Shown in pieces: positions 7,465 through 28,182 of a stretch of DNA of 64,000 nt. The notes under the pieces were generated by a model that had not been told where the DNA came from, ran no database searches, and saw nothing but the letters and a program-made list of their open reading frames with translations. Source of the stretch: an uncultured Rikenellaceae bacterium (GTDB taxonomy: Bacteria; Bacteroidota; Bacteroidia; Bacteroidales; VadinHA17); assembly GCA_964639725.1 (NCBI GenBank), contig CAZXFB010000007.1:58177-122176 (forward strand). Reading direction: 5' to 3'. Every line of letters begins with the position of its first letter. Position 1 is the first letter of the stretch. The translations under genes were made by a program, and so were the position numbers.

Positions 7465-7500
7465 CTGTTTAATTTCAGTAGTGTCCGACCAAAAGCAAGA

Positions 7501-7642: not shown

Positions 7643-8072
7643 CGAGCTTTGCGAGCTCACCAAAGGTAATCTCATGCTAATTTCAAATATTATCCGTTTA
7701 ATAATGATTTAATTTACAAAAATATGCAATATTGAATCATCTGCTAACTGATTTTTAAAAACCTGATATTATGACTTTTATTTGATGAATACCACTGATT
7801 TCTTATTCCTTATTCAGATCAGAAAATATTCAGCATAAAACTATGTCCTGATTATCCTGCTTTTTTAAAATCTTACTCCCTTATTATACAAATTTAAGAT
7901 ACAATGGTTATTAAATAATAATACAATTCATCTCATTTATAATATTTTCATACAGAAATAAAGCTATAAGCAATCAACTAAAAGAATCTATGACTTAAAT
8001 AGCAAAATTGAATCATTTTCTATATCAGCTGGCAAACCATTATGGTATTCTATCAGCATATAAATAACTTAG

Positions 8073-9251: not shown

Positions 9252-9381
9252 ATTAATGATCAGTTTGTTAGTAAAAATTATTTATTTGATCATCAATGAA
9301 GATAAGTTGTATTTTACACTCTTGCAAATCTCATAAAGAGAATTCTTTAATCAGGAGAATAAACCGGAAATAGTAGTTCAA

Positions 9382-10995: not shown

Positions 10996-11075
10996 TGTTC
11001 AAGTTAAAAAATTATCATTAATAAAATTCAAATAATATGTTCCATAACAAATAATGAAAGTTTTTGTATCAACAA

Positions 11076-12095
11076 TTAAACTTTCAATTCCAGGCATACA
11101 GCTAATAATTCTCTGCCGTTAAGGTTGAAAGTAACATTTTTCCATTTTTTTATAAAGCCACAATTTTCGAACATAGATATTTTTTCTTCATCCATAACCG
11201 CGACTTTCGACCATAATAAATGAGCATTTTTTTTTACGGCCCAGGAGTTAGCGGCATTAATCAAAGACTCCCAGCTTCCTGAGAATTTTGAATCAGTGAA
11301 TCCGTCTATCTGGAATCTATCTGCACCAGTTCGACGAACAGTCGACAATCCTACTATCTGGTTCAAATTGTTCCAGGCTGAAAACCAGGTACCCAATCCA
11401 TTATCAGCCAATGAACTATAACGAGGGAAAAGTCCCATACAAGAGTTTTGTTGTTCAAACTTTGATGAGAAAATATTGGTATTATTATCCATAACCTGCC
11501 AATTGTGAGGAGCAACTATCAATGGTATAATGGGAATACGGTCAGCTGGGGTCCCGTCTTTAATTCGTACAGGAGTAGCTTCTGTTAAGTAGCCGGAAAG
11601 AAATTCTTCAGGTGATTCATCATTAGTGACGTATAACATTACGTTAGTTCCTGGCACCTTTTTCCAACCAAGCCTTTTATAAATTAATGCAGCCACCGGA
11701 TTAGAAGTTCCAAGAAATAGTGCCCTTCCTCCTTCATAACAGAAATCTTTAAGAGCCCGGGAACATAGAGTACTTGCTATACTTTTACCGCGAAATTGAG
11801 GTAGCGTACAAACCTCACCCAGTCCGCCCAGTAGAGAGTTTGCAAGTGATATTGTAAGGTGACAGGTACCCACTATCTGACCATCAATCAAGGCAAAGTA
11901 TATGATATCCCTGTTGTATTCGCATTCTACTCCTGCCAGGATAGAACTAAAATATTGATAATCAGCATCAAACATAAGTGACCATAAATCAATCAGTTGG
12001 ACAATTGTTCTCTCATTCAATGGTACCGCTTCAATTGACAGATTGAATAATTCTTGTCTTCCTGAAGAGTTATTATACATTTCGCTAATAACCAA
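11076..12095 (-). CDS. GNAT-family N-acetyltransferase, no signal peptide
   Basis: Acetyl-CoA motif-A-like block LPQFRGKSIASTLCSRAL followed by YKRLGWKK. No leader is present. A second domain of about 150 aa follows at the C-terminus. Confidence 0.55.
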   Translation of the reverse strand: MVISEMYNNSSGRQELFNLSIEAVPLNERTIVQLIDLWSLMFDADYQYFSSILAGVECEYNRDIIYFALIDGQIVGTCHLTISLANSLLGGLGEVCTLPQFRGKSIASTLCSRALKDFCYEGGRALFLGTSNPVAALIYKRLGWKKVPGTNVMLYVTNDESPEEFLSGYLTEATPVRIKDGTPADRIPIIPLIVAPHNWQVMDNNTNIFSSKFEQQNSCMGLFPRYSSLADNGLGTWFSAWNNLNQIVGLSTVRRTGADRFQIDGFTDSKFSGSWESLINAANSWAVKKNAHLLWSKVAVMDEEKISMFENCGFIKKWKNVTFNLNGRELLAVCLELKV

Positions 12096-12135
12096 TTTTA
12101 TAAAAGCAAATTATTAAAATGAGTAAAAAGAATAG

Positions 12136-13245
12136 TCATATAACCAGTTTAAACCACCTAATATTGGATACCATTTTTTCGTAGCACCAGAATGCAATAA
12201 AGATGGAATTATCAGGGAGAATTGAAATACAGGGAGCACCAAATTTCAGCTCATTAAAATCCTGCACCATATTATCAGATTTATATAATAAACTTTTCTC
12301 CTGGGCACCCCACAAAGGGAAATCTTTTTCGTTGATCCAGATATCCTCATCCAATCGAGCGATAGTTGCCCACAGACCTGGTTTATCCATTCTTCGGTAA
12401 ACACATAGCAGACTTCCATCGGACAATTCAGTTATGGCCATTGTCTCACCATGAATTTCAGCCGAAGTCGGAACCAGCCATGTTTTACCCCCATCACGAC
12501 TTACCGAGTAATGGTTGGTTAAATCTTCACCATTCTTTTCATCATAAGTCCAGGCTACTGCTAACAGAAGTCCATTTTTTAACTCAATAATTTTACTTTC
12601 CCAGTAAATTATCTTATCGTCGCTTCTATTCATCACATTCATGTATTCCGGCCATGTTTTGCCCTGGTCACTGGAAACAAGTGCTACCATTTTCATCCCA
12701 TTAGGGCAATATCCATCCCAACCGCGCCAGGTTGATGTTGGCCATAACCATCGACCATCGCGCAAAGGCAATATTGGGCAACACTGTTCAAATGAAGGTC
12801 CAATGAGAGGAGCAGTAATTAATTCAGGGATATCCCATGTTTTTCCATAATCGTTGGATCGGACCAGAAACAAATCAGTGGGAACCATTCCAATGTTTTC
12901 CGGATTTGCGAGCCCCTCTTCGGGATGCAAATCACGATAACTTAGCACTACATTGGCCACCAGCCTACCATTTGGTAATGCGGTTATACGGGCAAAATCG
13001 GATGACAAATTATTTGTATCCACAGTAAACAGAGGAACAGGATCACTCCAAGTTTCACCCATATCATCTGACCGGGAGATAAAAGTATGCAAATTTACAG
13101 CTTCAAAGGCCTCCCCAATCGCCATTGAGGCAACCATTTCACCATTATCCATAATTGCAACAGACGGAAAATAGGCTTGTCTGCTTAGAACATGAGGTTT
13201 GGGATTTCGGTAAATAAGACCTGTTCCAATGATGAAATTATCCAT
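12136..13245 (-). CDS. Asp-box beta-propeller protein (family D, leaderless and presumably cytoplasmic copy)
   Basis: Starts MDNFIIGTGLIYRNPKPHVLSRQAYFPSV, exactly where the mature part of 6208-7464 begins (GIIYRNPKTHVVSRQAYFPSV). Asp-boxes SDDMGETW, SNDYGKTW, SSDQGKTW and SRDGGKTW. Confidence 0.7.
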   Translation of the reverse strand: MDNFIIGTGLIYRNPKPHVLSRQAYFPSVAIMDNGEMVASMAIGEAFEAVNLHTFISRSDDMGETWSDPVPLFTVDTNNLSSDFARITALPNGRLVANVVLSYRDLHPEEGLANPENIGMVPTDLFLVRSNDYGKTWDIPELITAPLIGPSFEQCCPILPLRDGRWLWPTSTWRGWDGYCPNGMKMVALVSSDQGKTWPEYMNVMNRSDDKIIYWESKIIELKNGLLLAVAWTYDEKNGEDLTNHYSVSRDGGKTWLVPTSAEIHGETMAITELSDGSLLCVYRRMDKPGLWATIARLDEDIWINEKDFPLWGAQEKSLLYKSDNMVQDFNELKFGAPCISILPDNSIFIAFWCYEKMVSNIRWFKLVI

Positions 13246-13288
13246 AATAATATATTAAAAGGTTTCTAAGATAATTTTGATATAAAGT

Positions 13289-14578
13289 CTAAGTTTGTTT
13301 TGATGCTTTCACGAGTAATAGAAGGATTGCGTTGGCCCCAAATATTAATGCCAACATTCGAAATATCATGTTAAAATCTATGTTCGCATCCAATAATATG
13401 CCACTTAGATAAATCCCTATACCACCCATTATACAACCTGCCAGATTAAGAATTCCATAACCTGTAGCTCTGTATCGAGGATCTGAAACCATGCATAATA
13501 CCGGCATCATATTTGGTTCATTAAATGCCAGTGTCAGAAAAATGAAAATAAATCCAAAAATAGCTAAAGGCAATATACTTGTTGTCCCTGACACAAATAT
13601 GGCAGGAGCAGCAGCACATAGTCCAATTACAGGAACGTAGATCCTTGCCCGTAAATTCTTACGACTCCACCGGTCAGCCCAGGCGCCACCAAGTAAAACA
13701 CCTATAAAACCTGCAATACTTGGGTATGCAGTAGCATAAATACTGGCCATTCCCTGGGATAAATTGAATTCTCCTTTAAAATATGTGGGCAACCAACCGA
13801 TAAGAACCCAACCTATTCCCATTACTCCAAAATAAACTAATAACAGAATAAAGGAACTATTGCTGAAGAGGCTCTTCAGGGCATCATGAAAGCGTACCTT
13901 TTCTACTTTTCTTTCTTTTAGTTCATCAGCAGGTTCATATGTACCATGAGGAAGATCCCGTAACAGAGGAACCAGGACTGCTAATGCGTATACAACACCT
14001 ATGATCCCATAAAGCTTGAAGGGAAATGTCCAATCGTTTCTTTCAGACAACCAGCCTCCAGTAAAGCTTAGTGTTTGACCTGCCAATATACCGGCAATAT
14101 GGAGTCCTGTTGCAAATGACCGAGTCGGTCCACGATGATAATCTGCAATAAGTGCAAGAGCAGCAGGGATATAACATGCCTCGCTTAATCCCATTAATAC
14201 CCGTGTAAAAAGTAACTGGTCAAATGTCTTTGCCAAACAGGTACTCCATGTGACTATTGACCATACAAACAGGCTCAGGATGATCACATTGCTTCGTTTA
14301 AACCTGTCTGCGAGGAAACCTGCAAATGGGCTTACAATACCATATACCCACAGGAATACGGAAGTAAGTAGTCCGAACTGTGCATCTGTGAGAGGCATTG
14401 CATCATTTAATGAACCTCTCATATTGGTGATCATTACCCGAACAATATAATTCAGGCAACCAACTACCATAAGTAATATCACAATCAGCCAGGCCCGGGA
14501 AGGAAGTTTTGCATCAGAAGGTGAGGTTATCGAAGGAATAAAAGCCAGATTCCTATTATCGCCCTGGTTTAAACTCAT
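13289..14578 (-). CDS. MFS transporter
   Basis: Hydrophobic throughout, with multiple predicted TM segments. The loop motif GFLADRFKRSNV resembles the MFS signature G-x-L-x-D-R-x-G-R-R. Confidence 0.8.
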   Translation of the reverse strand: MSLNQGDNRNLAFIPSITSPSDAKLPSRAWLIVILLMVVGCLNYIVRVMITNMRGSLNDAMPLTDAQFGLLTSVFLWVYGIVSPFAGFLADRFKRSNVIILSLFVWSIVTWSTCLAKTFDQLLFTRVLMGLSEACYIPAALALIADYHRGPTRSFATGLHIAGILAGQTLSFTGGWLSERNDWTFPFKLYGIIGVVYALAVLVPLLRDLPHGTYEPADELKERKVEKVRFHDALKSLFSNSSFILLLVYFGVMGIGWVLIGWLPTYFKGEFNLSQGMASIYATAYPSIAGFIGVLLGGAWADRWSRKNLRARIYVPVIGLCAAAPAIFVSGTTSILPLAIFGFIFIFLTLAFNEPNMMPVLCMVSDPRYRATGYGILNLAGCIMGGIGIYLSGILLDANIDFNMIFRMLALIFGANAILLLLVKASKQT

Positions 14579-14673
14579 CAGTAAAAAAATAAAATGATTC
14601 TTAATATTTTAACTTCACTCTTCACATCTAAATGAGCTGAGATATAGATTTCTTATTCAGATTTTTAGCCGAA

Positions 14674-15822
14674 TTATTGATAGATCCAATCAATGTCTAT
14701 TCGTCTGATAACTGATCCCATGTTTGCCCAATTTGAATAACCCAATAATAAATATTTATCAGTAAAATGTATTGCTGAATAACAGAAGGTTCCTCCAGGG
14801 TCAACTTCAAGGTTTTTAATTTTCTCCCAGTTAATACCTTCATCTTTTGAAATAGCTATAGTCAGTGGAGTGCGTTTTTGATCAACACCATTATTATTCC
14901 ATACCATCAGAAGATCACCCGTTGAAGGAATTCTTGCAATGGAAGCAGGTGAACAGGGAGATTTTATCTCACTCCTCCCAACAGCACTCCATGAATCCCC
15001 TCCATCCATGGAATAAGAAACATACTGAACCCCTGAAGTAGTCCTCATAAACATAAAAATTCTGCCATCTTTCAATTCAATTAATCCTGGTTCCTGGGTT
15101 ATCACACTGTCAGGATTTGCTGCTTCCTTACCTGCCTTCCATGTTCTGCCGTTGTCATCTGAATAATAGCTCCAGATGCTTCCAATTCTCTCTTTAAAAG
15201 AGTTATGCAGTGCAACAGCCAGGAGAATACGTCCATTTTGCAATTGAATAACCCTGTTATTATTTAACACAAAATAACCAACTTTATCAGTTATACAGGG
15301 TTGCGGATCGCTCCAGGTTTCAGCTTCATCATCCGATATCCGGATTATTGGAATACAGTCGTTTTCTGCATTTATCCTCAAATAGAACAATGCAATCTCA
15401 CCATTCTTCAATCTGAGCAGTGAAACCGACATAACATTCATTTTTCCTTCCTGCTCAATGATCTTAACACTCTCTTTTGTCCAGGATTTACCATTATCAG
15501 TTGAGTATCTTCCTGCAAGATATGCGTTGCCGTTATCATCACCTGAAGACCCGGTATAATGAGTATAAATAAAAAGTATCCTGCCATCTTTAAGAGTAAC
15601 AAAATCTCCTTCACTATTTCGTGGATTATCAGTTCCGGGATCAAGCCGGAGCATAACATTTTTATTATTTGTTCCTGCTTTACTTGTTTCTGGTTGGCTA
15701 TTGCAGCCTGAAATAATAAGAATGAGCATGCTATAGGCAATAGATTTTACAATAGCTGAAAATCCAATCTTATTATAAATTCGTAAAGCCCTTAAGGTCC
15801 AATAGTTTTTAAAATCTTCCAT
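14674..15822 (-). CDS. Sialidase-like glycosidase, family A (lipoprotein)
   Basis: DNPRNSEGDFVTLKDGRILFIYTHYTG, STDNGKSW, MNVMSVSLLRLKNGEIALFYL, CITDK, ARIPSTGDL, QKRTPL, SKDEGINW and FCYSAIHF. Lipobox IISGC. Confidence 0.8.
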   Translation of the reverse strand: MEDFKNYWTLRALRIYNKIGFSAIVKSIAYSMLILIISGCNSQPETSKAGTNNKNVMLRLDPGTDNPRNSEGDFVTLKDGRILFIYTHYTGSSGDDNGNAYLAGRYSTDNGKSWTKESVKIIEQEGKMNVMSVSLLRLKNGEIALFYLRINAENDCIPIIRISDDEAETWSDPQPCITDKVGYFVLNNNRVIQLQNGRILLAVALHNSFKERIGSIWSYYSDDNGRTWKAGKEAANPDSVITQEPGLIELKDGRIFMFMRTTSGVQYVSYSMDGGDSWSAVGRSEIKSPCSPASIARIPSTGDLLMVWNNNGVDQKRTPLTIAISKDEGINWEKIKNLEVDPGGTFCYSAIHFTDKYLLLGYSNWANMGSVIRRIDIDWIYQ

Positions 15823-15843
15823 GTTACGGACAAGGTAAGGAGT

Positions 15844-17103
15844 TTAATACTTAATAAGTTTGTTGGTTTTTGACCAAATGACCCTGGCACTCCATACAGT
15901 TCCATCAGCTCCACGAGGATTTGGTTTATCTCCAACAACGAATTCGGCATCTGTAACCCATGACTCATCCTTTGTGATTGCTGAAGCTCCAAAATTTCCT
16001 AGCATAACACCACGCTCTGGCATAAGTATCTGCTCAGTTGCCCTTATAACTTTTAAGTTTATGGGATCAACCTGCGCAAGAAAAATCGGTGCACGGTTAC
16101 GAGCAATATGATCATTATTGGCACCTCTTCTTGTATATGAGAGAAACAAACCATCGCTATGTACTAACCAATGAGCCTGAGTGTTGTAGCTTCCCAGTTC
16201 CTGTCCGTCATCAAACAGCCATGGTTTGAATGCAGTGTAATTTAATCCGTCTTTGCTTGTTGTCACATAGCCTTTGAAGTCATTCCTCATTGTAAGAAAA
16301 TATGTGCCTTTATAAAGTGCCAGTGAAGGTTCGCCCAAACCACGTCCTCCTTTTACTGTCATCTCATTACCATGCTTTACATATGATAATGTTGTACCAT
16401 CAAAGGAACATTCAAAGACTGCCACTGAAGACTCATCTGACCCCTGTCCGCTAAAATAGAGTGGAAGTAAAATTGTTCCGTCAGGTTTTACAAGCCATTG
16501 CACACAACCCGGATTAACCAGGTAAAATTTAGAATTTAAATCAGGAACCCTGGCAAGCATTTTCCATGTTGACCATGAATTTTTAACAGGATCAAAAACA
16601 GCATACGCAGCGTCATGAGAACGTGGTTTATCTACCAGCTGTTTTCCTTCTTTACTGTACCTCACTTTAATTCCGATAGCTATAAGTTTACCAGTTTTCG
16701 CATGCCATCCCGGAGTAACGTCAGCAACGCTTACTGTTGTGCCATCAGGTTCAAATTGCCATGCCAGTTCTGGTATCTCAACTGGGTCAGACCAAGTCTT
16801 TCCAAGGTCATCAGTCCTCATAAAATACAATCCGGAATAGTAATCACTTACAACAAGATGCTTCTGGATTGTCATAATTACTGCCGGATTTCCACCCTTC
16901 CCAAATCCAGGAATTGCAGCAGCTCTGGGATGAAACCAGCAGAATTTTGGACTAAGTTCCTGATGAGCAACATCAGTCTGGACACGAAATCCAATTTGTT
17001 TTGTTTTTTCTTCAGGTTTTCCGGAAAAACCGCAAAGGATTATAATAGGAACAACCAAAAGCGAGATACCTACTAATAAATTTGTGTGGATGTTGATTTT
17101 CAT
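15844..17103 (-). CDS. Asp-box beta-propeller protein (family C, Sec/lipoprotein-type leader)
   Basis: Leader ending ILCG and the motif TDDLGKTWSDP. The C-terminal half is closely parallel to 37000-38373, for example SYNTQAHW, YTRRGANNDH(I/V)ARNRAP and DE(S/T)WVT. Confidence 0.65.
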   Translation of the reverse strand: MKINIHTNLLVGISLLVVPIIILCGFSGKPEEKTKQIGFRVQTDVAHQELSPKFCWFHPRAAAIPGFGKGGNPAVIMTIQKHLVVSDYYSGLYFMRTDDLGKTWSDPVEIPELAWQFEPDGTTVSVADVTPGWHAKTGKLIAIGIKVRYSKEGKQLVDKPRSHDAAYAVFDPVKNSWSTWKMLARVPDLNSKFYLVNPGCVQWLVKPDGTILLPLYFSGQGSDESSVAVFECSFDGTTLSYVKHGNEMTVKGGRGLGEPSLALYKGTYFLTMRNDFKGYVTTSKDGLNYTAFKPWLFDDGQELGSYNTQAHWLVHSDGLFLSYTRRGANNDHIARNRAPIFLAQVDPINLKVIRATEQILMPERGVMLGNFGASAITKDESWVTDAEFVVGDKPNPRGADGTVWSARVIWSKTNKLIKY

Positions 17104-18354: not shown

Positions 18355-19266
18355 TCACAATCGGGTAAGATCAATTTTTCTGAAAAACAATTCCGCACCT
18401 TCTGATTGTATCTGGATATGTCCGCTGCGAGGTTGGACATCAATGGCCTGGTTCATTAATGTACCATTCAGATATATTGTTATCTCTTGTCCTTTAACTA
18501 TACACTCAATTCTGTTCCATTTACCAACTGGCTTCTCAATGTTATTCTTTCCACGAAATCCTTTAACATCCTTCCATTCCGGATCACGTCCATACCAATT
18601 TATTCGTCCTCCATTAATTGTTACCGGATTTCCACCTGGTTTGAAGACATACGAGCCTCCTTGTTTTTCAGGTTCTACAGGACAGGTAAGTAAAAATGAA
18701 GGAGATCCGTCACCTACTACCAGCAAGTCGCCAGTTCCACCTTCAATAATCTGACATTCAATTGAATGCATCCATATACCTGAATATCCACCATCTTCTC
18801 CTTTTGAATGCAACAATACACCACTATCTCTTGCCTTATCAATACGTGGGGGAAACGTAATTTCACCATATTTAAACTCAACAACAAGTTTGTAATTCTC
18901 GAACTCATCATTTGTTGTTATGCAACCAAATTCCTCACCGGAGATTCGTATCAGATTTTCCCTGACTGTAAATACTTTATTCGGATCATTATCACGACCT
19001 TTTCCTTTAATAAAAGTGTACCAGCCGTCAAGGTTATTACCATTAAATAATTTGATTGTCGACTCTCCGGATGATTTTTTTGGTTTATTCTTACCACTCC
19101 GTGATTGAGCTGAACCTTGATCAACAATAATCAAAATTGTAAACAGCAAAATAATAGTTGAAACAGTCAGTCTCTTTATTTCAGATGTCATAATTATTTT
19201 TTTTATTAATTTCAGATTGGAGTCATTTCCGGAATGATTGCAGCTTTTTGAATTCAGTATGGTCAT
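18355..19266 (-). CDS. DUF1080 (3-keto-disaccharide hydrolase-like) secreted protein
   Basis: IKLFNGNNLDGWYTF, FENYKLVVEFKY, DSGVLLHS, ECQIIEGGTGDL, GKWNRIECIVKGQEITIYLNG and GHIQIQSEGAELFFRKIDL. The ATG at 19266 overlaps the upstream stop as ATGA. Met at 19191 (MTSEIKRL...) is an alternative start. Confidence 0.65.
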   Translation of the reverse strand: MTILNSKSCNHSGNDSNLKLIKKIIMTSEIKRLTVSTIILLFTILIIVDQGSAQSRSGKNKPKKSSGESTIKLFNGNNLDGWYTFIKGKGRDNDPNKVFTVRENLIRISGEEFGCITTNDEFENYKLVVEFKYGEITFPPRIDKARDSGVLLHSKGEDGGYSGIWMHSIECQIIEGGTGDLLVVGDGSPSFLLTCPVEPEKQGGSYVFKPGGNPVTINGGRINWYGRDPEWKDVKGFRGKNNIEKPVGKWNRIECIVKGQEITIYLNGTLMNQAIDVQPRSGHIQIQSEGAELFFRKIDLTRL

Positions 19267-20282
19267 TTCTTTGCATTCTGTTCTGCCGATTTGTCGGCAG
19301 CAAATACAACTTTGTGTGTTAACATTGCATCAGACAGGCTGGTTAATGGCATTTCCTTTCCCTCGTCAACTGCCTTAAAGAAAGCTTCGAACTGGACCTG
19401 ATAGGGATGATCTGACACATCACCGGAATCAAGCATTTTCATAGAGAGTTCACTCCATTTGCCTTTATTAAGTCCGCCCAGTTTTGTGGAATAGAACTTG
19501 TTATCAAGGAGAGATCCCTCACTGCCAACAAGGTGAAAATGGAAATAGTATGGTTGTAAACAATCAATTATGGAGGCAACTTTACCGACAGCACCATTCT
19601 TGAATTTTATTATTGATACAGAACTGGTAGGATATTCGTATTTCGAAAAGTCTTTATTGGAAGAAGATGCTGAATAACTGCTCACTGTATCAAATTCGCT
19701 GCCCATACATAATAGCAGGGCATCCATAGCATGACATCCAGCTGATAAAAGGCTGCTAACTGCAGCTTCTTTTTTTGTGTTCCAGCGAAACTGGCCATAC
19801 CAAGGTCCAATACCATGATAATAATCTACTTCGCCATAATGAATTTTTCCAAGCAAACCACTGTCAATAACAGCTTTAATAGAAAGGAGCTGACTTGAAA
19901 ACCTGCATTCAAAACAGACACAAGTCTTAACTCCGGCTTGTTTTACGGCTGCTTCAATAGCCATACAATCCTCCCATGTGAGGGCAAGGGGTTTCTCAAT
20001 GATAAGATGTTTTCCTGCTTTGGCAGCAGCAATAGCCTGTTTAGCATGTTCAGCAGGATAACTGCAGATAGAAACAGCATGAATTTCAGGATCAGCAAGC
20101 ATTTTTGAAAGGTCTGTATAGCAAGCTATTGTCCCGCCGTGTTTGGCACTTATTTCTGCAGAATCAAGTTTTCTGGAAGAACAGAGTGCAGTGACCTGCG
20201 CATATGAAGTATTATTTATTGCTGCAATGTGTGCTCCTGCGGCCCAGCTGTAACCAATTATACCAACATTATATTTCTTCAT
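19263..20282 (-). CDS. Gfo/Idh/MocA-family NAD(P)-dependent oxidoreductase (no leader)
   Basis: N-terminal Rossmann motif MKKYNVGIIGYSWAAGAH and the EKP motif in HLIIEKPLALT. Confidence 0.8.
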   Translation of the reverse strand: MKKYNVGIIGYSWAAGAHIAAINNTSYAQVTALCSSRKLDSAEISAKHGGTIACYTDLSKMLADPEIHAVSICSYPAEHAKQAIAAAKAGKHLIIEKPLALTWEDCMAIEAAVKQAGVKTCVCFECRFSSQLLSIKAVIDSGLLGKIHYGEVDYYHGIGPWYGQFRWNTKKEAAVSSLLSAGCHAMDALLLCMGSEFDTVSSYSASSSNKDFSKYEYPTSSVSIIKFKNGAVGKVASIIDCLQPYYFHFHLVGSEGSLLDNKFYSTKLGGLNKGKWSELSMKMLDSGDVSDHPYQVQFEAFFKAVDEGKEMPLTSLSDAMLTHKVVFAADKSAEQNAKK

Positions 20283-20541
20283 AGTTTATGATATTAATTA
20301 AAATTAGTTTTATAAGATTCAAGATGCATGATTGTAATTATACTAATATTCAAATATAATTTTTTTAATAAAGAGATACAATAACATAATTATAAATTAC
20401 AACCTTTACGTAAATAAAAAAAATATTGAACTTATGAAAGTTTGATTTGAATGAAGTTTGACAGAACTTCAATTTGAAAAAAATAGAATATTGACTATAT
20501 TTCCATTGAGTTTGAATAGCAGAAGTAAAATAATTAAAAGA

Positions 20542-21894
20542 ATGAAAAAGCAATCTAGAAGGAAGTTTATTGTTACTTCAGGTTCTGGTGCATTGTTCTC
20601 GATGGCTGCCAGCAGTATACCATCAGTGTTTAGTAATAATGAAGCAGGCAAACTTGCTTTATCAGGAGGAGATCCGGTGAGAAAGACGAAATTTCCATCC
20701 TGGCCTGTTTGGGATGAAAATGATGAAAAAGCAATCATCCCTGTGTTACGAAGCGGAGTATGGTCAAGACGTAATGTTGTTACTCAGGCTGAACAGAAAT
20801 TCGCCAAACTTATGGGTTCCAATTACTGTCTTCTGACTACAAACGGAACAAATGCTCTAGTTGCTGCTTTAAGAGCATTAGGTGTTGAAGGAGGTGATGA
20901 AGTAATTACGACCCCATGGAGTTGGATATCATCAATGGCTTCAATTTTCCTTAATAATGCGCTTCCCGTATTTGTTGACATTGATCCTGAAACATGGATG
21001 TTAAATGCAGACCAGATTGAGGCACAAATTAACGCTGACACAAAGGCAATTCTAGCTGTCCAGATCACCGGTGGAATATGTCATATGGATAAAGTAAATA
21101 ATATTGCCAAAAAGCATAATCTAAAGGTGGTTGAAGATGCCTGTGAGGCCCACATGGCAGAATGGAAGGGAAAGAAAGCAGGAACTCTCGGTGATCTTGG
21201 GTGCTTTAGTCTGCAAAATGGAAAACAGTTAACCTGTGGAGAGGGTGGTGCCATACTTGGAAACGACGAACGGATCATGGACCTATGTTATTCAGTACAT
21301 AATGTCGGAGCAGTATATGGCAAGTATATGCCTAGAGATAAAGGTACATTTCCTGTTTTAGGGACAAAAGCCAGAATGGCAGAATACCAGGCATCAATGG
21401 TAATAACACAGATGGATACACTTGAGCTGGAAACACAAAAAAGATGTGAAAATGCTGATTATCTATCATTAAAAATCGGGGAAATTCCCGGAATTGTTCC
21501 AAGGAAAGATTATCCTGAGACAAACCGTACTTCATACTATTATTATGGATTCAGGTTTAAAGAAAAAGAATTTGGTATAACTCGCGATGCTTTTGTGAAA
21601 GCTATCCAGGCAGAAGGCCTTCCTCCAAGTACCAATCTTGGTGTTACTTCCTATCCTCTTTATCAAAATGGTGTCGTAGATTCTGTAATCAGTTCAAGAA
21701 CATACCAGAAATTGTATTCTAAAAAGAGACTTGATGATTACCGTGCTTCATTAAATCTGCCGGAAGTGGAAAAATTATGTAAAGAAACTGTAGGTTTTCA
21801 TAGCAACACTTTGCTGGGTCCGAAATCAGATATGGATGATATTTACCGGGCTATACTTAAAGTATATGAGAACAGGAACCAGCTTAAAGGATAA
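20542..21894 (+). CDS. Tat-leader DegT/DnrJ/EryC1/StrS-family PLP aminotransferase
   Basis: I chose Met at 20542, giving MKKQSRRKFIVTSGSGALFSMAASS (a twin-arginine leader). Other motifs are TNGTNALVAALRAL, GDEVITTP, VVEDACEAH and the PLP-lysine block CFSLQNGKQLTCGEGGAI. The longer ORF from 20458 adds 28 aa that do not resemble a leader. Confidence 0.85.
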   Translation: MKKQSRRKFIVTSGSGALFSMAASSIPSVFSNNEAGKLALSGGDPVRKTKFPSWPVWDENDEKAIIPVLRSGVWSRRNVVTQAEQKFAKLMGSNYCLLTTNGTNALVAALRALGVEGGDEVITTPWSWISSMASIFLNNALPVFVDIDPETWMLNADQIEAQINADTKAILAVQITGGICHMDKVNNIAKKHNLKVVEDACEAHMAEWKGKKAGTLGDLGCFSLQNGKQLTCGEGGAILGNDERIMDLCYSVHNVGAVYGKYMPRDKGTFPVLGTKARMAEYQASMVITQMDTLELETQKRCENADYLSLKIGEIPGIVPRKDYPETNRTSYYYYGFRFKEKEFGITRDAFVKAIQAEGLPPSTNLGVTSYPLYQNGVVDSVISSRTYQKLYSKKRLDDYRASLNLPEVEKLCKETVGFHSNTLLGPKSDMDDIYRAILKVYENRNQLKG

Positions 21895-21952
21895 ACTATT
21901 AACCTTCATTACAAATGAAATGATAATCAAAAATAGATTTACAGGAGGAACC

Positions 21953-22936
21953 ATGAAAACAGAAAACTTTCTATTAAAACGTCCAGTGTTAATAACTATT
22001 ATTGCTCTTTTAGTTTTAGTTACAATTATAACATCTTTCAAATTATCTGATCCACGTTTGGTTCGATATGATGGACAAGAAAACATATCGGTTGAAGCTG
22101 CTAAAAAAAATCCCTCAATAGCTCCGGTTGCATCTCTAAGGATAGCTCTTGCCCAGGTAAGAAGGTGTGTATATATAAATGAGGGCATTAGGAAAATCGA
22201 CTCTATTTTGTCGGTATGCAGTCTTCAAAATGTAGATATAGTTTGCTTTCCTGAAACGTATATACCCGGTTTGCGTGGTGGAGGTGATGATTCCATGCTG
22301 CCTCCTCCTGATCAGCCGGCAATGGAAAAGGCACTTAAAGAAATAGAGAGATCATGCGGTAAATACAAAGTTGCGGCAATAGTAGGGATGGAATGGTTAA
22401 GCATTTCCGGACTTGAAAACCGTGCTTTTGTAATTTCAGATGAAGGTAAATTACTGGGACATCAGACTAAAAACCAGATTACCCCTGGGGGAGAAGAAAA
22501 ACATTATGTTCCTGAAGATACCCGAAGTCTATTTGTCCTAAAAGGTGTCACATTCGGAATTGTCATATGCCATGAAGGATGGCGTTTTCCTGAAACGGTA
22601 AGGTGGGCAGCGGTAAGAGGAGCTAAAATTGTTTTTCAACCTCAGGTGACCGGAGGTAATGAACCTGGAATATTTAAACCAAAGCCATGGGGAGACTCTT
22701 ACTATGAAATGGCAATGGTACTGCGGTCAAAAGAGAACTCTATCTATTTCGCAAGTGTAAATGAATGCATGAATAAGCAAAATTCCTCAACATCACTTAT
22801 TGACCCGGAAGGTAATATGATTGATCATTTACCCTGCGGTATTGAAGCAATAATGATAAAAGATATTGACCCTGCAAAAGCTACAGGATTTTATGCATCA
22901 CGGTACAGACCGGAACGATACAAGGAAGCCAAATAA
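21953..22936 (+). CDS. Membrane-anchored carbon-nitrogen hydrolase (nitrilase superfamily)
   Basis: Met at 21953 is preceded by AGGAGGA. The N-terminal TM segment is PVLITIIALLVLVTIITS. The Glu motif is CFPETYIPG and the catalytic Cys block is FGIVICHEGWRFPE. Confidence 0.7.
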   Translation: MKTENFLLKRPVLITIIALLVLVTIITSFKLSDPRLVRYDGQENISVEAAKKNPSIAPVASLRIALAQVRRCVYINEGIRKIDSILSVCSLQNVDIVCFPETYIPGLRGGGDDSMLPPPDQPAMEKALKEIERSCGKYKVAAIVGMEWLSISGLENRAFVISDEGKLLGHQTKNQITPGGEEKHYVPEDTRSLFVLKGVTFGIVICHEGWRFPETVRWAAVRGAKIVFQPQVTGGNEPGIFKPKPWGDSYYEMAMVLRSKENSIYFASVNECMNKQNSSTSLIDPEGNMIDHLPCGIEAIMIKDIDPAKATGFYASRYRPERYKEAK

Positions 22937-22969
22937 TCTTAATATACTTTCTGATATATCTATATAACC

Positions 22970-23896
22970 TCAGCTATTTTGAATTATTTTCTGGAGATAA
23001 TCTTTGGTTTTCAGCAAATATTCACTGTTTCTGCTGGCAAGTTCATATTCAATTGTAATACTGCCACTAAAATCCAGTTGCCTTAGAAAGGAGATTACCT
23101 CAGGAAAATTAACCTCTCCTGTTGGTATAGGAACCTCTTTCCCCAACTCATAGGGATTTGTCGGATAATTACCATCTTTTGCATGAAGAGCTCTGACATA
23201 TTTCCCCAGTACCTTTAATCCGTCAACAGGATTTGATTTCCCGTACATAACAAGGTTAGCCGTGTCATAATTCACGAACAGGTTACCTGTTCCAATATCT
23301 AAAATTGCACGTAAAAGGGCAACAGGAGTCTCCTGTCCTGTTTCAAAATAGATGTCAATACCTTTATTGAGTGCATATTCTCCCAGAGGTTTCATAGTGT
23401 CAACAAACTCAATATACAGGATATCCTTCGGGTCTTCAGGGATAAAACCAAAATGGGCATGAACTGCAGGGATACCTGCAGCTTTACAAAAATCAATACC
23501 CTGTTTAAATCGTTCCACCCGGGCAGTCCGGTTTTCGCGAGGAACAAGACCAATTGTTGAGGGGCCATCAGGGAAATTGTATTTGTAAACTCCGGGGCCC
23601 ATACAGATCAATGAAGTTGGCAATATCCTGTATTTTTCTAGTGTGGTAACCAACCTTGCTGCCAGTTCCGGTGAATAGCTCTTAAGGTTAAGCTGGCATG
23701 TAGGAAAACCCAGGTCTCTGACAATTTTTAAATCTTCTTCGGGATTATTGGCGGCAGAGATCACACCAAGTAAAATATCCTTAGAAGCTACTTTTATATC
23801 TGAGACCGGTGCTCTCCCGAAAGAGGAAATAGCAGCAGGCATGGCAGCAATTACAGCTGCGGAACTGATAAACTTCCTTCGATTTATTTTCGCCAT
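22970..23896 (-). CDS. Tat-leader xylose-isomerase-like TIM-barrel protein (sugar phosphate isomerase/epimerase family)
   Basis: Leader MAKINRRKFISSAAVIAAMPAAISSFG. Metal-ligand-like positions are spread as in the AP-endonuclease-2/xylose isomerase fold: AVHAHFG, YFETGQE, ALHAKDG and TIEYE. Confidence 0.7.
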   Translation of the reverse strand: MAKINRRKFISSAAVIAAMPAAISSFGRAPVSDIKVASKDILLGVISAANNPEEDLKIVRDLGFPTCQLNLKSYSPELAARLVTTLEKYRILPTSLICMGPGVYKYNFPDGPSTIGLVPRENRTARVERFKQGIDFCKAAGIPAVHAHFGFIPEDPKDILYIEFVDTMKPLGEYALNKGIDIYFETGQETPVALLRAILDIGTGNLFVNYDTANLVMYGKSNPVDGLKVLGKYVRALHAKDGNYPTNPYELGKEVPIPTGEVNFPEVISFLRQLDFSGSITIEYELASRNSEYLLKTKDYLQKIIQNS

Positions 23897-23908
23897 ATGA
23901 TTAATGTT

Positions 23909-25180
23909 TTATTTATCAAATTGTGAAAGATTTAACATTGGATCAAGTTTTGCATTTGAAAATATCATTTCGTCCCATAAAATTTCTTCACCAGCCATTG
24001 CAGCTGTTCTGCCCAATATTCCTGAGAGTGTCGATTCGGATCCTGAACGGGCTTCGTTGATATAGTTTCCTGTTTCTATACTCCTGACAAAGTCTTTATC
24101 CTTATTTGCATCAGCATCTGATAATGAAGAGAGAAAAATACCGGCAGCTCTCTGTTCCGGTGTCAGGACTGTATCCTTATTCTTCACAACACCTGAATCC
24201 CAGGGTTTTTCACCTGTAATAAATACTCCTCCACTGTAATGTGCCTCAGCTATACCTTTAGTTCCGATAAATCTGGCACATACATCACCTGATTGTTTTC
24301 CCTGCTGAACATTATAGTAGACAACTTTCACATTTTCAGGATAATCATAAAGAATCTGATAATTAGACCATGTGTCACCAAAACCGGTTCCTCCTTTTTT
24401 ACTTCCGGTACCAACTGCTTTTAACGGGTGTGCCTGTAAAGCCCAGTTACAAACATCAACCATATGTATTCCCTGGTCAACCAGACTACCCCCCGACAAT
24501 GCCTGAAAGTGATAATGATTCCTTATCCTTGCTTCATCATACGACATATTTTCATATGGTTTAACCGCCAGACCTGCTGCAATATAATATAATTGAGCAT
24601 TTACTATTTCACCCAGATCACCCTGCTGAATTCTTCTAATCATTTCAACATAAGCAGATGCAAACCTGATCTGAAAACCAATTGCAAGGCTGAGTTTACC
24701 TTTCGCCAATTCACCAAGCCTGATAACCTGCTGACATCCTGCAACATCTACAGCCACCGGTTTTTCAGAATAAACATGCTTACCAGCTGTAATTGCCGCC
24801 TCAATATACCCGGGATGCGAATAGCATGGAGAGGAGATGAGAACAGCATCAACATCTTTATTATTCAGAAGGGAAAGATATGCTTTTGAACCCTGATAAA
24901 TATTTGCTTTTGGTATCTCGGGCAATCCTTTTTCAGTATTTAGCTTATTTAAAACATTATTTGCATTCTGAATCCTGTCACTTAGCAGATCAGCCATTGC
25001 TATAATCGCAACGCCGGCGTTTTTGGACATTGAGGTGATAACGGCTGTTCCTCTGCCTCCGCAACCAATAATACCCATGCGTATTGCAGAATTGGCCTGT
25101 GACCCGAATGCTGTTCCAGGCTTTAGCAGCGTTATTGCTGATACAGCTGATGCGCTCTTTAGAAATGATCTTCTTTTCAT
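23909..25180 (-). CDS. Tat-leader Gfo/Idh/MocA-family oxidoreductase (candidate glycoside dehydrogenase)
   Basis: Leader MKRRSFLKSASAVSAITLL, Rossmann motif IRMGIIGCGGRG and EKP motif VYSEKPVA. The gap to the downstream TIM-barrel gene is 12 nt. Confidence 0.85.
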   Translation of the reverse strand: MKRRSFLKSASAVSAITLLKPGTAFGSQANSAIRMGIIGCGGRGTAVITSMSKNAGVAIIAMADLLSDRIQNANNVLNKLNTEKGLPEIPKANIYQGSKAYLSLLNNKDVDAVLISSPCYSHPGYIEAAITAGKHVYSEKPVAVDVAGCQQVIRLGELAKGKLSLAIGFQIRFASAYVEMIRRIQQGDLGEIVNAQLYYIAAGLAVKPYENMSYDEARIRNHYHFQALSGGSLVDQGIHMVDVCNWALQAHPLKAVGTGSKKGGTGFGDTWSNYQILYDYPENVKVVYYNVQQGKQSGDVCARFIGTKGIAEAHYSGGVFITGEKPWDSGVVKNKDTVLTPEQRAAGIFLSSLSDADANKDKDFVRSIETGNYINEARSGSESTLSGILGRTAAMAGEEILWDEMIFSNAKLDPMLNLSQFDK

Positions 25181-25227: not shown

Positions 25228-28182
25228 CTATTGTTTTGGCAAAGGGATTCCTTCACTTATTACTGTTACCTGAACCCGGGGATTAATTCCTCCTTCAGAC
25301 TTGCAGTTGAAAGAGATTTTGTTTTCTCCATCCCTGATTGTGGGAATAGTTCCTTCAAATGAAACATCTTTAATGAACTCGCCTTTTTTTCCGAATAACT
25401 TGCAATCGGAAGCTGATTTGAATTCAAGATACATTCCAGGTTCCATTTTAACCTGAAAGAGTATCTTTTCACTACCAATGGTTACAGAAGGGTTTTCAAC
25501 CAAAACCGGAACCATTTGCAATGCCTTAACCGGGCTTATGAGACATCCCACATCCCTCCCCATTGGAATATTATTGTACCATAACTGAAGTTTATCTACG
25601 CTTTTAAATTGTACTGTGTGACGATATGAATCGTAAACATAAAAACCGGAATCGGGCCAGATGTAATTACTGAATTCAGCTGATTCAATCTCAACAAGTT
25701 CAAAATATTTCCAGCCTTTGAAATCTATTTTCACAAAATGGTCACCACGTGCACCATGAGAAATTTGTTTTGGGCTTTCAATCCTCAGATTCAGTAGTTG
25801 TCCGTTGCCATCTCCCTTTATCCATACTCCAAGAGCCTGATTTTTATCAAGATCAAGCCATGGATCAAATTTCTTCTCCATTTTGATCCACATACCTTCC
25901 TGCTGAGTTGAGTTTTTGTTCACAGCAGAAAACAGTGCAGTTCTCTCCCCTTTTACTTTTTCTACTGACACCTTTAACTCACCATAGACTCCTCCAGCTT
26001 TTCCTTCAACAACAAACTCGTCATTTTTTGAAAAATCAGCGATAACAACTGATGTAGGATCATTATATGATTTGACAGACATTAAAGGTTCTATCCTCAG
26101 CTTAACAGGTTGCCGGGCAAACTCATTATTCACAATCCATTCTGATGAAGGATGATCAGGTCCTGCAACCTTGTGTTTTCTGTACATAACAGGTTTAAAG
26201 TTCCAATCACCGTTCTCTTCCTTAAACAATGTGAACTCTCTGCCAGGCTGACGAAGAATAGCACGTACATTATCACTGAAATAATTCTGATGTCTTAATG
26301 TTTCGTATTGTTTTATAATTTCTGTGATTCGCCTGAAAAGAGGGGTCTCATCAAGTGTTTTTTTGTCAACACCTCCCAGCATCGACAAACCGGCATTATT
26401 ACCTATCATTTTACAGCACAGATATTCAATATCATCAGGAAAAGTGGGTTCTACCTGTGGAGGATTCCAAGTTTGATTGCCCCACCATCCGAGATGAAGA
26501 GGGAGAAGAAGTCCACCATTTTCAACCACCGAATATTTTTCAATCAATGGTGAATGGCCACGCCATAAACCATGTTCATTTTCATTTGACTTTATGATGG
26601 GTGGGAGGAACAACCGGGTTGATTTGATAGCTGCGGAATGAATGTCCTCAAATCGTTTATATCCACGAACAGGCCTGTCCCATGCCTGCCAGCGAGAACG
26701 GTAATGCCACCAGTGATGAGACATTGAACTCATCTCCATTCCAACAGGATGCTCCAACTGCCTTGCAACGGCAAATATAAACTTTGTTCCATAATACCAG
26801 AAGTTTTCTTCCCCGCCAAGTATATCACTGCCATCGATGGCATCGAAATATATTCCGTCAAATCCACAGTTGCTTACAATTTCTGCTGTTCTGCGAGCTA
26901 TTTCATCAAATAGGGCAGTTTCGGGGCCTGGTACAAACCTGCCAAACATCTCACGAAGGTGAAAGAGTTTCTCATCAACCGGGTGAGATGAAGCTTTTGT
27001 TCCGTTGACACCTCGTTTGCAGCCAGTAAATTTATATGGAGGTGTATCGGTAACACCACTGAATTCAATCAACTCACCACCAATTCGCAGAGATAGACTG
27101 TTTCTTACAAAAAAGCCGGTTGTAGTTGATATATCTGAAGTGGACTCCCTGACAATAATCGCACTATCATCGGCACCCATTGGTTCTGCCAGAGTAAATG
27201 AATTGAAGTATCCAAGATCTTCACTCGGAACAGGTGTTACATATTTTGAATTTTTATCAATAAAAAAAGCATAAGTATGAAAAATGGATGAAATTCCAGC
27301 TTCATGCAGTTTGTCATTTATGCGTTTATATGAATCCCAACCGTCAGGCCATTTTTCTTTATTAAGTTCAAAATCTCCAAATTTAAAAAATGCACCCCCA
27401 CCATGATTATCTATCTGATTAAAACCTAAACTTCGACACATCTCAATCCACTCTTCTACAGTACTTTCTGTAAGGGTTCCAAAGTTCATTAGGTATGAAC
27501 CATAACCCTCTTTCTGCATCAGAGCCCAGGCACCTCCCTTATCAGAATGAGGAACATCTTTTGCTTTCTCCATAATACTCCGGATAGCAGGTAATACTTT
27601 TGGATAAGGAAGACCAAGCAGATTAATTTCTGCTCCAACCAGTCCAAACCTGCTGTAACATGTTGCCCACAGATCAGTCTGGAGAGCAGGAATCTGACGG
27701 ACATGAGTAAATAGATTCATTGAAAGAACACATGCCCCAAACGGTTCGTATGGCATACCCTCTAGCTTTAAAGGAACATTAAGAAATGTCAGAGATTCAA
27801 TATCTCCGGTAACAGATTTAACTTTTAAAGTAATGTGGTCCTTTGCTTTCCTGAGAAGAATATCGGCCTTAACACCAGAATCACCAAAATCCATTAAAAG
27901 GTGATTACCTGAAATTCTTAACGAGCTAATATCATATTTCTTACTTTTACATGTAACAAAGGCACATTTTGAAACCGTGTCAGTATCGAGGTAATCCGTA
28001 CCTGTCACTTTATCAGTAAAATGAAGGTTTTTCCCGTCGCAACCAATCTTATAGAAAAAATTGCCATTTTCAATTACAACTGATTCTTCTGTTGCAGAAG
28101 AGCATTGATATAAGATTATACCAGCTAGAATAAAGCAGAATAACTGTAATATACGGTTCATTCTAAAAAAGATTATTTTCAT
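25228..28182 (-). CDS. Large secreted protein (984 aa) of unknown family, possible glycoside hydrolase
   Basis: A long uninterrupted ORF with a signal/lipobox-like leader (ILYQCSS). The central region alternates hydrophobic strands with helices and has Asp/Glu/Trp-rich loops (GFNQIDNHGGG, IYFDAIDGS, HLGWWGN). I recognise no named motif. Confidence 0.45.
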   Translation of the reverse strand: MKIIFFRMNRILQLFCFILAGIILYQCSSATEESVVIENGNFFYKIGCDGKNLHFTDKVTGTDYLDTDTVSKCAFVTCKSKKYDISSLRISGNHLLMDFGDSGVKADILLRKAKDHITLKVKSVTGDIESLTFLNVPLKLEGMPYEPFGACVLSMNLFTHVRQIPALQTDLWATCYSRFGLVGAEINLLGLPYPKVLPAIRSIMEKAKDVPHSDKGGAWALMQKEGYGSYLMNFGTLTESTVEEWIEMCRSLGFNQIDNHGGGAFFKFGDFELNKEKWPDGWDSYKRINDKLHEAGISSIFHTYAFFIDKNSKYVTPVPSEDLGYFNSFTLAEPMGADDSAIIVRESTSDISTTTGFFVRNSLSLRIGGELIEFSGVTDTPPYKFTGCKRGVNGTKASSHPVDEKLFHLREMFGRFVPGPETALFDEIARRTAEIVSNCGFDGIYFDAIDGSDILGGEENFWYYGTKFIFAVARQLEHPVGMEMSSMSHHWWHYRSRWQAWDRPVRGYKRFEDIHSAAIKSTRLFLPPIIKSNENEHGLWRGHSPLIEKYSVVENGGLLLPLHLGWWGNQTWNPPQVEPTFPDDIEYLCCKMIGNNAGLSMLGGVDKKTLDETPLFRRITEIIKQYETLRHQNYFSDNVRAILRQPGREFTLFKEENGDWNFKPVMYRKHKVAGPDHPSSEWIVNNEFARQPVKLRIEPLMSVKSYNDPTSVVIADFSKNDEFVVEGKAGGVYGELKVSVEKVKGERTALFSAVNKNSTQQEGMWIKMEKKFDPWLDLDKNQALGVWIKGDGNGQLLNLRIESPKQISHGARGDHFVKIDFKGWKYFELVEIESAEFSNYIWPDSGFYVYDSYRHTVQFKSVDKLQLWYNNIPMGRDVGCLISPVKALQMVPVLVENPSVTIGSEKILFQVKMEPGMYLEFKSASDCKLFGKKGEFIKDVSFEGTIPTIRDGENKISFNCKSEGGINPRVQVTVISEGIPLPKQ

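Follow-up and report, generated by a model that had tools for sequence, protein, structure and literature searches.

A conserved four-gene cassette, candidate for keto-sugar glycoside cleavage, is interrupted by a Tat-exported aminotransferase and a carbon-nitrogen hydrolase in a Bacteroidales polysaccharide utilisation locus

Do the dehydrogenase, TIM-barrel and DUF1080 genes that lie close together in a polysaccharide utilisation locus (PUL) of an uncultured Rikenellaceae bacterium form one glycoside-cleaving unit, and what does an aminotransferase gene do in their midst? The locus lies in a 64,000-nucleotide stretch of contig CAZXFB010000007.1 (the window; positions are counted from its first letter). 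An earlier note on this DNA had read six genes at 18355-25180 as a periplasmic oxidise-and-eliminate glycoside cleavage module fused to an aminotransferase/amidase pair. We find that four of them are one conserved unit and that the other two are a lineage-specific insertion on the opposite strand. Coupling of the inserted pair to the cassette is plausible, and the presence of an aminotransferase together with an amide hydrolase hints at a route feeding amino sugars into a keto-sugar pathway.

The six open reading frames (ORFs) were found where they had been reported, and their families were confirmed by Pfam profile matches, all above the gathering score; ORF calling and the family labelling of comparison loci followed simple procedures. 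On the minus strand, a Gfo/Idh/MocA protein (GFO) of 423 aa, exported by twin-arginine translocation (Tat-GFO; 23909-25180; Pfam GFO_IDH_MocA), is followed by a Tat-exported xylose-isomerase-like TIM barrel (22970-23896; AP_endonuc_2, 98.7 bits), the stop of the first being exactly 12 nt from the start of the second, as the earlier note had it. Further along the same strand come a leaderless, cytosolic GFO (19263-20282; Pfam GFO_IDH_MocA) and a secreted DUF1080 protein (18355-19266; PF06439, 3keto-disac_hyd, 105.7 bits, E = 3.9e-30). Between these halves stands what is indeed the sole plus-strand gene pair of the window: a Tat-exported aminotransferase of the DegT/DnrJ/EryC1/StrS family, dependent on pyridoxal phosphate (PLP) and 450 aa long (DegT; ORF 20458-21894; PF01041, 281 bits), and a protein of the nitrilase superfamily with an N-terminal signal anchor (CN_hydrolase; ORF 21836-22936; PF00795, 72.4 bits against a cut-off of 23.2). 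The latter gene is convergent with that of the TIM barrel, their stop codons lying 33 nt apart.

The Tat signals proposed for DegT, the TIM barrel and the 423-aa GFO proved well founded. Their motifs (SRRKFIV, NRRKFIS and KRRSFLK, respectively) are accompanied by a hydrophobic stretch, and R6 and R7 of DegT, R6, R7 and F9 of the TIM barrel and R3, R4 and F6 of the GFO are invariant among homologues; export is predicted on these grounds. We also agree that the second GFO is leaderless, because its Rossmann motif lies directly at the N-terminus. The ATGA overlap described between this gene and DUF1080 is present in the sequence, but it needs the first ATG of DUF1080, while the Sec-type signal peptide begins at Met26 (ATG 19191). 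The gene call of the Joint Genome Institute on an identical contig (locus L001; comparison loci are cited by such numbers) starts there too, and in relatives the two genes are separated by 10-63 nt and overlap in none. Met26 at 19191 is the probable true start. Similarly, DegT most likely starts at ATG 20542 rather than at TTG 20458 (gene 20542-21894), and CN_hydrolase at ATG 21953 (gene 21953-22936), which leaves a gap of 58 nt after DegT and no overlap. The AT-rich divergent intergenic region at 20283-20541 is the presumed promoter region of both the leaderless GFO operon and the DegT/CN_hydrolase operon; promoter and terminator scans gave consensus-level matches only, which are uninformative for a Bacteroidota genome.

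The Tat-GFO, the Tat-exported TIM barrel, the leaderless GFO and DUF1080 are one conserved unit. The analysis covered 80 metagenome loci with orthologues of the TIM barrel (46-81% identity), whose ORFs were labelled with jackhmmer profiles seeded from the window proteins. In L095 the four genes are contiguous and co-directional, in the order Tat-GFO (79% identity), TIM barrel (78%), leaderless GFO (83%) and DUF1080 (75%), with gaps of 12, 63 and 63 nt and a GH78-like gene behind them; L117 has the order GFO-TIM-DUF1080. Of the TIM loci, 63 have an upstream gene, and in 24 of these the gene directly upstream, on the same strand, is an orthologue of the Tat-GFO (53-80% identity); the spacing of the two is 7-13 nt across many loci. 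The leaderless GFO (77-83% identity) directly follows the TIM barrel in 10 of 62 loci, and in L095, L117 and L008 a DUF1080 orthologue (68-75% identity) comes after the cassette. Of the 128 ORFs adjacent to the TIM barrel, 40 are GFO genes, against 14 among the other 231 ORFs of these loci (odds ratio 7, p = 6e-10), so the GFO-TIM arrangement is beyond chance. Since the TIM loci join the Tat-GFO, the TIM barrel, the leaderless GFO and DUF1080, as the L095 quartet does, the two parts of the cassette on either side of the plus-strand pair belong together. More than 120 orthologue clusters of the TIM barrel exist at 70-88% identity.

A precedent for such a unit is provided by BT2156-BT2160 from Bacteroides thetaiotaomicron and AL1-AL5 from Alistipes (Liu et al. 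2021, PMC8121099; Nasseri et al., bioRxiv 10.1101/2024.03.25.586180). There, the Tat-exported GFO BT2158/AL3 oxidises glycosides at C3, the TIM barrel BT2156/AL1 carries out the elimination of beta-glycosides, the DUF1080 protein BT2157/AL2 performs alpha-glycoside elimination and glycal hydration, and BT2159/AL4 is a cytosolic GFO. By analogy, we tentatively propose, giving it a little less than an even chance, that the window cassette serves keto-sugar glycoside cleavage and that DegT and CN_hydrolase bring N-acylated amino sugars into the same chemistry. The Tat-GFO, with bound NAD (nicotinamide adenine dinucleotide), would oxidise a secondary hydroxyl of a periplasmic sugar residue, most likely at C3. 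The TIM barrel and the secreted DUF1080 protein would then exploit the acidified neighbouring proton, eliminate the glycosidic substituent and rehydrate the enone, and the leaderless GFO would reduce the released keto-sugar after its import. With lower confidence, CN_hydrolase might strip the N-acyl group and DegT might turn the free amine into a ketone, which would be open to elimination by the TIM barrel and DUF1080 or to reduction by a GFO.

The two dehydrogenases fit this proposal at the level of their nearest solved relatives, namely DgpA, levoglucosan dehydrogenase and inositol dehydrogenases, whose substrates are secondary alcohols in glycosides or cyclitols. In profile searches of the PDB, the Tat-GFO matches DgpA at 1.5e-19, inositol dehydrogenases at 3e-19, GH109 at 3e-13 and AL3/BT3 at 5e-7. 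The leaderless GFO is closest to DgpA (7xr9, 2e-25) and levoglucosan dehydrogenase (6a3f, 4e-18). We regard the former as a candidate glycoside dehydrogenase of the periplasm that would act on secondary alcohols and bind NAD tightly, and the latter, which corresponds by position to BT2159/AL4, as a candidate for reducing the keto-sugar after import. A sialic-acid role of the NanOx/YjhC kind was considered for the GFO proteins and set aside, their similarity to those enzymes (1e-6 to 1e-9) being weaker than to DgpA and the inositol dehydrogenases. One could also imagine that the Tat-GFO is a self-contained NAD-dependent glycosidase of GH109/GH4 type beside an unrelated TIM barrel, as GH109 proteins are Tat-exported GFO proteins of similar length, or that the two catabolise cyclitols like IolG/IolE, as inositol dehydrogenases score level with DgpA and there is a distant AP_endonuc_2 match to IolE. 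However, the GH109 structures (2ixa, 3.4e-13; 6t2b, 3.8e-10) are weaker matches than DgpA or the inositol dehydrogenases, and inositol pathways are cytosolic while both window proteins are predicted to be exported and belong to a SusC/SusD locus. Moreover, the strict 7-13-nt operon coupling across many loci implies that the Tat-GFO and the TIM barrel work together, and we consider both of these explanations very improbable.

The TIM barrel belongs to a subfamily without a characterised member. In the PDB it comes closest to 3tva, an uncharacterised structure (2e-34 for the single sequence and 3e-40 for the profile), which together with MJ1311 makes up all its PDB matches below 1e-4; its best NCBIfam matches are 3-epimerases, and AtHYD, a 2-hydroxy-3-keto-glucal hydratase, is weakly matched by the profile (0.005). 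We take the protein to be a candidate metal-dependent enzyme acting beside a sugar carbonyl, as a beta-eliminase, hydratase or epimerase. A keto-sugar substrate can be soundly deduced, because these relatives all deprotonate next to the sugar carbonyl. The DUF1080 profile matches the BT2/AL2 structures 8tda/8tde at 3.5e-30, a family-level match, and is closer to the uncharacterised 4jqt/3hbk; with the single sequence, nothing was found in the PDB at 0.01. The protein is a candidate 3-keto-glycoside lyase or 2-hydroxy-3-keto-glycal hydratase.

Several observations weigh against the proposal, beginning with its cassette part. The Tat-GFO scores 51.9 bits in the NCBIfam equivalog model of BT2158 (BT_2158_fam, NF058561), where the cut-off is 750, and the leaderless GFO 38.4 bits in that of BT2159 (BT_2159_fam, NF058563), where it is 650; AL1/BT1 was not found in PDB searches with the TIM barrel at E <= 1, either with the single sequence or with the profile. 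Judged by such comparisons, none of the four cassette proteins is orthologous to a characterised enzyme. Only 4 of 77 loci have DUF1080 within three genes of the TIM barrel, and the locus counts include near-duplicate contigs and statistics that ignore phylogeny. The comparison of structure predictions with characterised enzymes, which the earlier note had suggested, was run for the TIM barrel, with an AlphaFold model built from 15 close orthologues. The Foldseek neighbours include AtHYD, ketose 3-epimerases and the 3-keto-glucoside 4-epimerase YcjR (6wn6), and confidence in the model is low (mean predicted local distance difference test, pLDDT, of 61; residues 204-262 disordered). Because the model is poor, we use Foldseek merely to show that the epimerase, hydratase and lyase relatives are inseparable. 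The module claimed in the earlier note thus stands as to families and compartments, which match those of BT2156-59/AL1-4; its oxidise-and-eliminate chemistry is only inferred, because the proteins are non-orthologous and the TIM subfamily lacks a characterised member, and this applies above all to elimination, since the TIM barrel is indistinguishable from a keto-sugar epimerase or hydratase.

The same evidence allows another view, that the Tat-GFO and the TIM barrel retailor a sugar by oxidation, epimerisation and reduction, like YcjQRS, and that ordinary glycosidases (GH27 in relatives, GH78, or a 984-aa protein described below) act afterwards. The YcjR and 3-epimerase neighbours of the TIM model, its best NCBIfam matches and the infrequency of DUF1080 beside its orthologues would all agree with this, as would the GH27, GH78 and GH106 genes that flank the pair in several loci. 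Nevertheless, DUF1080 and a cytosolic GFO accompany the pair in L095, L117, L008 and the window, and pure epimerisation needs neither; in addition, the TIM model is too poor for ranking functions. We therefore think that a retailoring role is rather unlikely and keep to cleavage as the preferred function of the cassette.

Turning to the inserted pair, the PLP lysine of DegT (K228, in FSLQNGK) and the arginines at positions 6 and 7 are invariant in 18 homologues. The nearest solved enzymes are L-glutamine:2-deoxy-scyllo-inosose aminotransferases (5w71/2c7t, ~1e-59), ahead of nucleotide-sugar enzymes, and all NCBIfam equivalog scores are far below their cut-offs. In CN_hydrolase, the Glu-Lys-Cys triad motifs (CFPETY, QTKNQITPGGE and ICHEGWRFPE) are at least 95% conserved in 120 homologues, and the positive-inside rule predicts a catalytic domain on the periplasmic side. 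NCBIfam and PDB searches gave no specific match to a characterised subfamily; the matches are weak and mixed (NAD synthase, 46 bits; deaminated-glutathione amidase, 32 bits; carbamoylputrescine amidase, 1e-6). The branch to which it belongs, with more than 7,000 matches at E <= 1e-10 and 55-60% identity across phyla, includes no characterised protein. Of the 120 top matches, about 60% are at least 285 aa long, with room for an N-terminal extension, and about a quarter have a clear hydrophobic anchor or signal stretch. A homologue adjoins a 680-aa metallophosphoesterase in two contigs (5.6 and 8.1 Mb).

The content of the slot that separates the TIM barrel from the leaderless GFO shows that the pair is a lineage-specific opposite-strand insertion. 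DegT and CN_hydrolase occupy this slot in the window and in the P0004 contig (79% identity), CN_hydrolase alone in L008 and GH106 with DegT in L089, while in L095 it is empty; the insertion is thus kept, wholly or partly, in three syntenic relatives. As L008 is without DegT and L089 without CN_hydrolase, and as the insertion is found in close relatives only, the description of the pair as fused to the module did not hold. The DegT orthologue group (at least 60% identity) was seen in seven contexts, four of them with a Tat-TIM/Tat-GFO pair nearby, of which three are syntenic relatives. The fourth, L009, is an independent arrangement with a DegT 60% identical to ours. In this metagenome-assembled genome of Bacteroides sp. 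SM23_62 (L009:1787-6773), the Tat-DegT gene is divergent from an operon of a Tat-exported enolase-superfamily protein (MR_MLE), a Tat-TIM and a Tat-GFO; an exported enolase-superfamily enzyme of this kind is unusual.

More can be learned from the family at large. Tat-exported DegT proteins are widespread; about 450 aa long and invariant in their Tat motif, they occur in Bacteroidota, Planctomycetota and Acidobacteriota. We compared the ORFs near these genes (within three genes) with those farther away in 74 genome loci. A secreted ceramidase-like amidase is near DegT in 25 loci (32 of 371 near versus 2 of 375 far ORFs, odds ratio 17.6, p = 2e-8), homologues of a 460-aa protein of the window (56165-57547) number 14 near versus 0 far (p = 5e-5), and Tat-GFO genes 25 versus 13 (odds ratio 2.0, p = 0.046); TIM, DUF1080 and CN_hydrolase genes showed no enrichment near DegT in these loci. 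In SusC/SusD loci (L009-L088) the module comprises a Tat-GFO, the Tat-DegT, the ceramidase-like amidase (PF04734-related), the 460-aa homologue and a second Tat-GFO, with examples at L032:8946-19253, L050:9998-14143 and L037:9986-14040. The gene order in L032 (Dyadobacter sp. SG02), namely LacI, Tat-GFO, Tat-DegT, ceramidase-like amidase, 460-aa homologue, Tat-GFO, MFS, NagA-like and NagB-like, ties the module to amino-sugar catabolism. The ceramidase-like amidase is the commonest labelled gene directly downstream on the same strand (16 of 89 DegT genes), the slot that CN_hydrolase has in the window, and the pairing of an amidase with a transaminase is therefore general. Since CN_hydrolase holds this slot, we read it as a non-orthologous amidase in the same pairing. 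The amidase-aminotransferase partnership suggested earlier is borne out in that it recurs elsewhere with a different amidase family, but the window's own two families are not neighbours of the TIM barrel in its 77 loci, as set out below.

A different partnership has to be weighed here, in which DegT and CN_hydrolase are a glutamine transaminase/omega-amidase couple and the amination of a keto-sugar is made irreversible by hydrolysis of 2-oxoglutaramate. The closest solved relatives of DegT use L-glutamine as donor, and omega-amidases belong to the nitrilase superfamily, adjoin glutamine transaminase genes elsewhere and act as such a ratchet (PMC6302742). However, CN_hydrolase has no specific similarity to Nit2-type enzymes, its best NCBIfam and PDB matches being weak and mixed; no CN_hydrolase lies within 10 kb of the 74 other Tat-DegT genes, where the ceramidase-like N-acyl amidase recurs instead; and amination has no obvious purpose in a catabolic locus. 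In our opinion, this couple is a distinctly improbable explanation of the pair.

Deacylation followed by transamination, our preferred role for the pair, meets difficulties of its own. We know of no sugar N-deacylase in the nitrilase superfamily, and transamination by DegT would require a periplasmic amino-group acceptor. Neither DegT nor CN_hydrolase is carried by any of the 77 TIM loci, and the absence of CN_hydrolase from the 74 DegT loci counts here as well. Its homologues occur in unrelated contexts (including L005, L006, L007, L172 and L173), the DegT orthologue group is without the cassette in three of its seven contexts (L090, L091, L174), and among the 74 DegT loci the TIM barrel is within three genes once only. 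It is hence conceivable that the pair is an unrelated accessory insertion serving another step of the PUL, for instance together with three Tat-exported DegT proteins encoded at 57674-61843, and that the cassette is real without any biochemical coupling to it. The occupation of the same slot by CN_hydrolase alone or by GH106 with DegT would be in line with this. On the other hand, the pair stands exactly between the halves of an otherwise contiguous operon and is kept in three relatives, the independent L009 again puts a Tat-DegT beside Tat-TIM and Tat-GFO, and the products are all predicted to be periplasmic and would act on compatible functional groups. We hold an uncoupled insertion to be a doubtful alternative, though one to be taken seriously.

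In its widest form, the idea would be that Bacteroidota and other degraders of glycans use transamination in the periplasm to catabolise polysaccharides. A secreted amidase would deacylate a rare amino sugar, a Tat-exported DegT would make the ketone, and either a Tat-GFO would reduce it to an ordinary sugar or, in the present locus, the TIM barrel and DUF1080 would carry out beta-elimination. We consider this extension of our proposal unlikely. If true, the keto group would come from a transaminase instead of a dehydrogenase, and glycosides without a free hydroxyl to oxidise could be cleaved by deacylation, transamination and elimination.

The six-gene region is part of a PUL of ~50 kb with SusC (48414-51641), SusD (46882-48360) and an AraC regulator (51909-52778). 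The window, with a GC (guanine-cytosine) content of ~38%, is nearly all a minus-strand gene array of SusC/SusD loci. Identical copies of the genes were found in metagenome contigs only, and the closest named relatives are Bacteroidales metagenome-assembled genomes. The setting among sialidase-fold genes, pointed out earlier, is correct: 14 ORFs match BNR_2, 13 of them above the gathering score. They lie at 28-17103, 32793-33923 and 41921-46683, the last of these being a tandem run of four, and most have lipoprotein or Sec signals. Other window genes encode a GH78 rhamnosidase, an SDR protein, an HpcH aldolase, a URO-D-like protein, a GDSL esterase, an MFS transporter, a GNAT protein and several proteins without a family match. 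The URO-D-like gene (PF01208; 35774-36877) is beside the HpcH aldolase and a GFO-like protein of 307 aa, and such a gene directly follows the TIM orthologue in 11 of 62 loci (L139-L150, L096-L098).

Directly upstream, in the sense of transcription, of the Tat-GFO/TIM pair lies the gene of the 984-aa protein (25228-28182, minus strand), which is co-conserved with the pair and gave no match in Pfam, NCBIfam and PDB searches. Its orthologues (69-77% identity) adjoin the pair in L008 (14969-17920) and the P0004 contig and are directly beside the TIM barrel in six further loci; L104, L105 and L113 are among the loci that have it. It is possibly a glycan-binding or glycan-cleaving partner, perhaps an undescribed glycan-active enzyme. 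In L008 a GH27 gene (Melibiase_2; 13324-14880) stands between the Tat-GFO and the 984-aa gene, and there is none in the window. GH27 with a He_PIG domain adjoins the Tat-GFO in L089 (13726-15300) and CN_hydrolase in L172 (10977-12500), and rhamnosidases of GH78 and GH106 repeatedly flank the cassette.

At the right end of the window is a second PUL (52878-63944), with a SusD fragment (63150-63944), a BT_3987-like N-domain protein and the three tandem Tat-signal DegT paralogues mentioned above (60479-61843, 59078-60448 and 57674-59053), which are 40-42% identical to the focal DegT. The 460-aa protein, a lipoprotein without family assignment, belongs to this PUL, as do a DUF4838 protein (53799-56078) and a second DUF1080 protein (52878-53732). 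More twin-arginine proteins are encoded at 4940-5866, 31669-32601, 37000-38373 and 39871-40713; they are an Amidohydro_2 protein, a GDSL esterase and two proteins, of 308 and 457 aa, that match no family. To judge from these signals, the periplasm of the host seems to contain unusually many pre-folded, cofactor-bearing enzymes imported via Tat.

The stepwise oxidise-and-eliminate route has been characterised only recently, in gut Bacteroides. The window carries a distant four-gene relative of it, which is part of a very large PUL and abundant among Bacteroidales of wetlands and sediments; the mechanism would thus reach further than the orthologue group in which it was characterised. In the literature searched, we found no description of periplasmic or Tat-exported DegT enzymes or of ceramidase-like genes in PULs, nor of a Tat-exported, PLP-dependent DegT family in glycan loci with secreted amidases and Tat-exported dehydrogenases. 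If these enzymes do remove amino groups from bacterial or other amino sugars in the periplasm, this would explain how the N-acylated amino-deoxy sugars of microbial necromass are digestible, and it would add a new enzyme class to PUL annotation.

How does the locus compare with known systems? Like the glutamine transaminase/omega-amidase couples (PMC6302742), it has an aminotransferase gene adjoining a nitrilase-superfamily gene; unlike them, its CN_hydrolase has no specific relation to omega-amidases and both proteins are predicted to be periplasmic. BtrR (2c7t) and 5w70/5w71, the closest solved relatives of DegT (~1e-59), share with it the trait that their substrates are not nucleotide-linked, but they are cytosolic antibiotic-biosynthesis enzymes without a signal peptide, whereas the window DegT has a Tat leader of ~30 residues and belongs to a separate family of ~450 aa. 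WbpB/WbpE and GnnA/GnnB each consist of a dehydrogenase and an aminotransferase of the DegT family, which convert C-OH, C=O and C-NH2 into one another at a single sugar carbon. The same interconversion is made by the gentamicin enzymes GenD2/GenS2, which act at C3'' of a plain glycoside (PMC4340712). These pairs are cytosolic and biosynthetic and run in the direction of amination, whereas the window enzymes are Tat-exported in a catabolic PUL.

With respect to the cassette, E. coli YcjQRS (glucoside/guloside 3-dehydrogenases and YcjR, PDB 6wn6) likewise combines a GFO dehydrogenase with an AP_endonuc_2 TIM barrel acting on a 3-keto-glycoside; however, it is cytosolic, epimerises instead of cleaving and lacks DUF1080, and the resemblance comes from a low-confidence model. 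In the Agrobacterium 3-keto-glycoside route (AtHYD, PDB 8ro4) and in C-glycoside cleavage by DgpA/DgpBC, a 3-dehydrogenase (GFO or other) supplies the keto-sugar on which AP_endonuc_2 TIM barrels act. Both window GFOs have DgpA as their best solved match, and the TIM barrel matches AtHYD weakly by profile and by structure, but these are superfamily-level matches only (DgpA 1.5e-19, AtHYD 0.005), and those systems are cytosolic or use a dehydrogenase that is a flavoprotein, and they have neither DUF1080 nor an aminotransferase. Compared with BT2156-59/AL1-4, finally, the gene order is not the same, the TIM barrel has a Tat instead of a Sec signal, and the cassette is split by the DegT/CN_hydrolase pair, has no adjoining regulator of the SusR/DUF6377 type and lies within a SusC/SusD PUL with sialidase-fold, GH78 and unassigned genes. 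The likeness is that the same four families (TIM barrel, DUF1080, Tat-GFO and cytosolic GFO) are brought together in one gene cluster of a Bacteroidota host and that, as predicted from the N-termini, all of them are exported except the second GFO, which stays in the cytosol.

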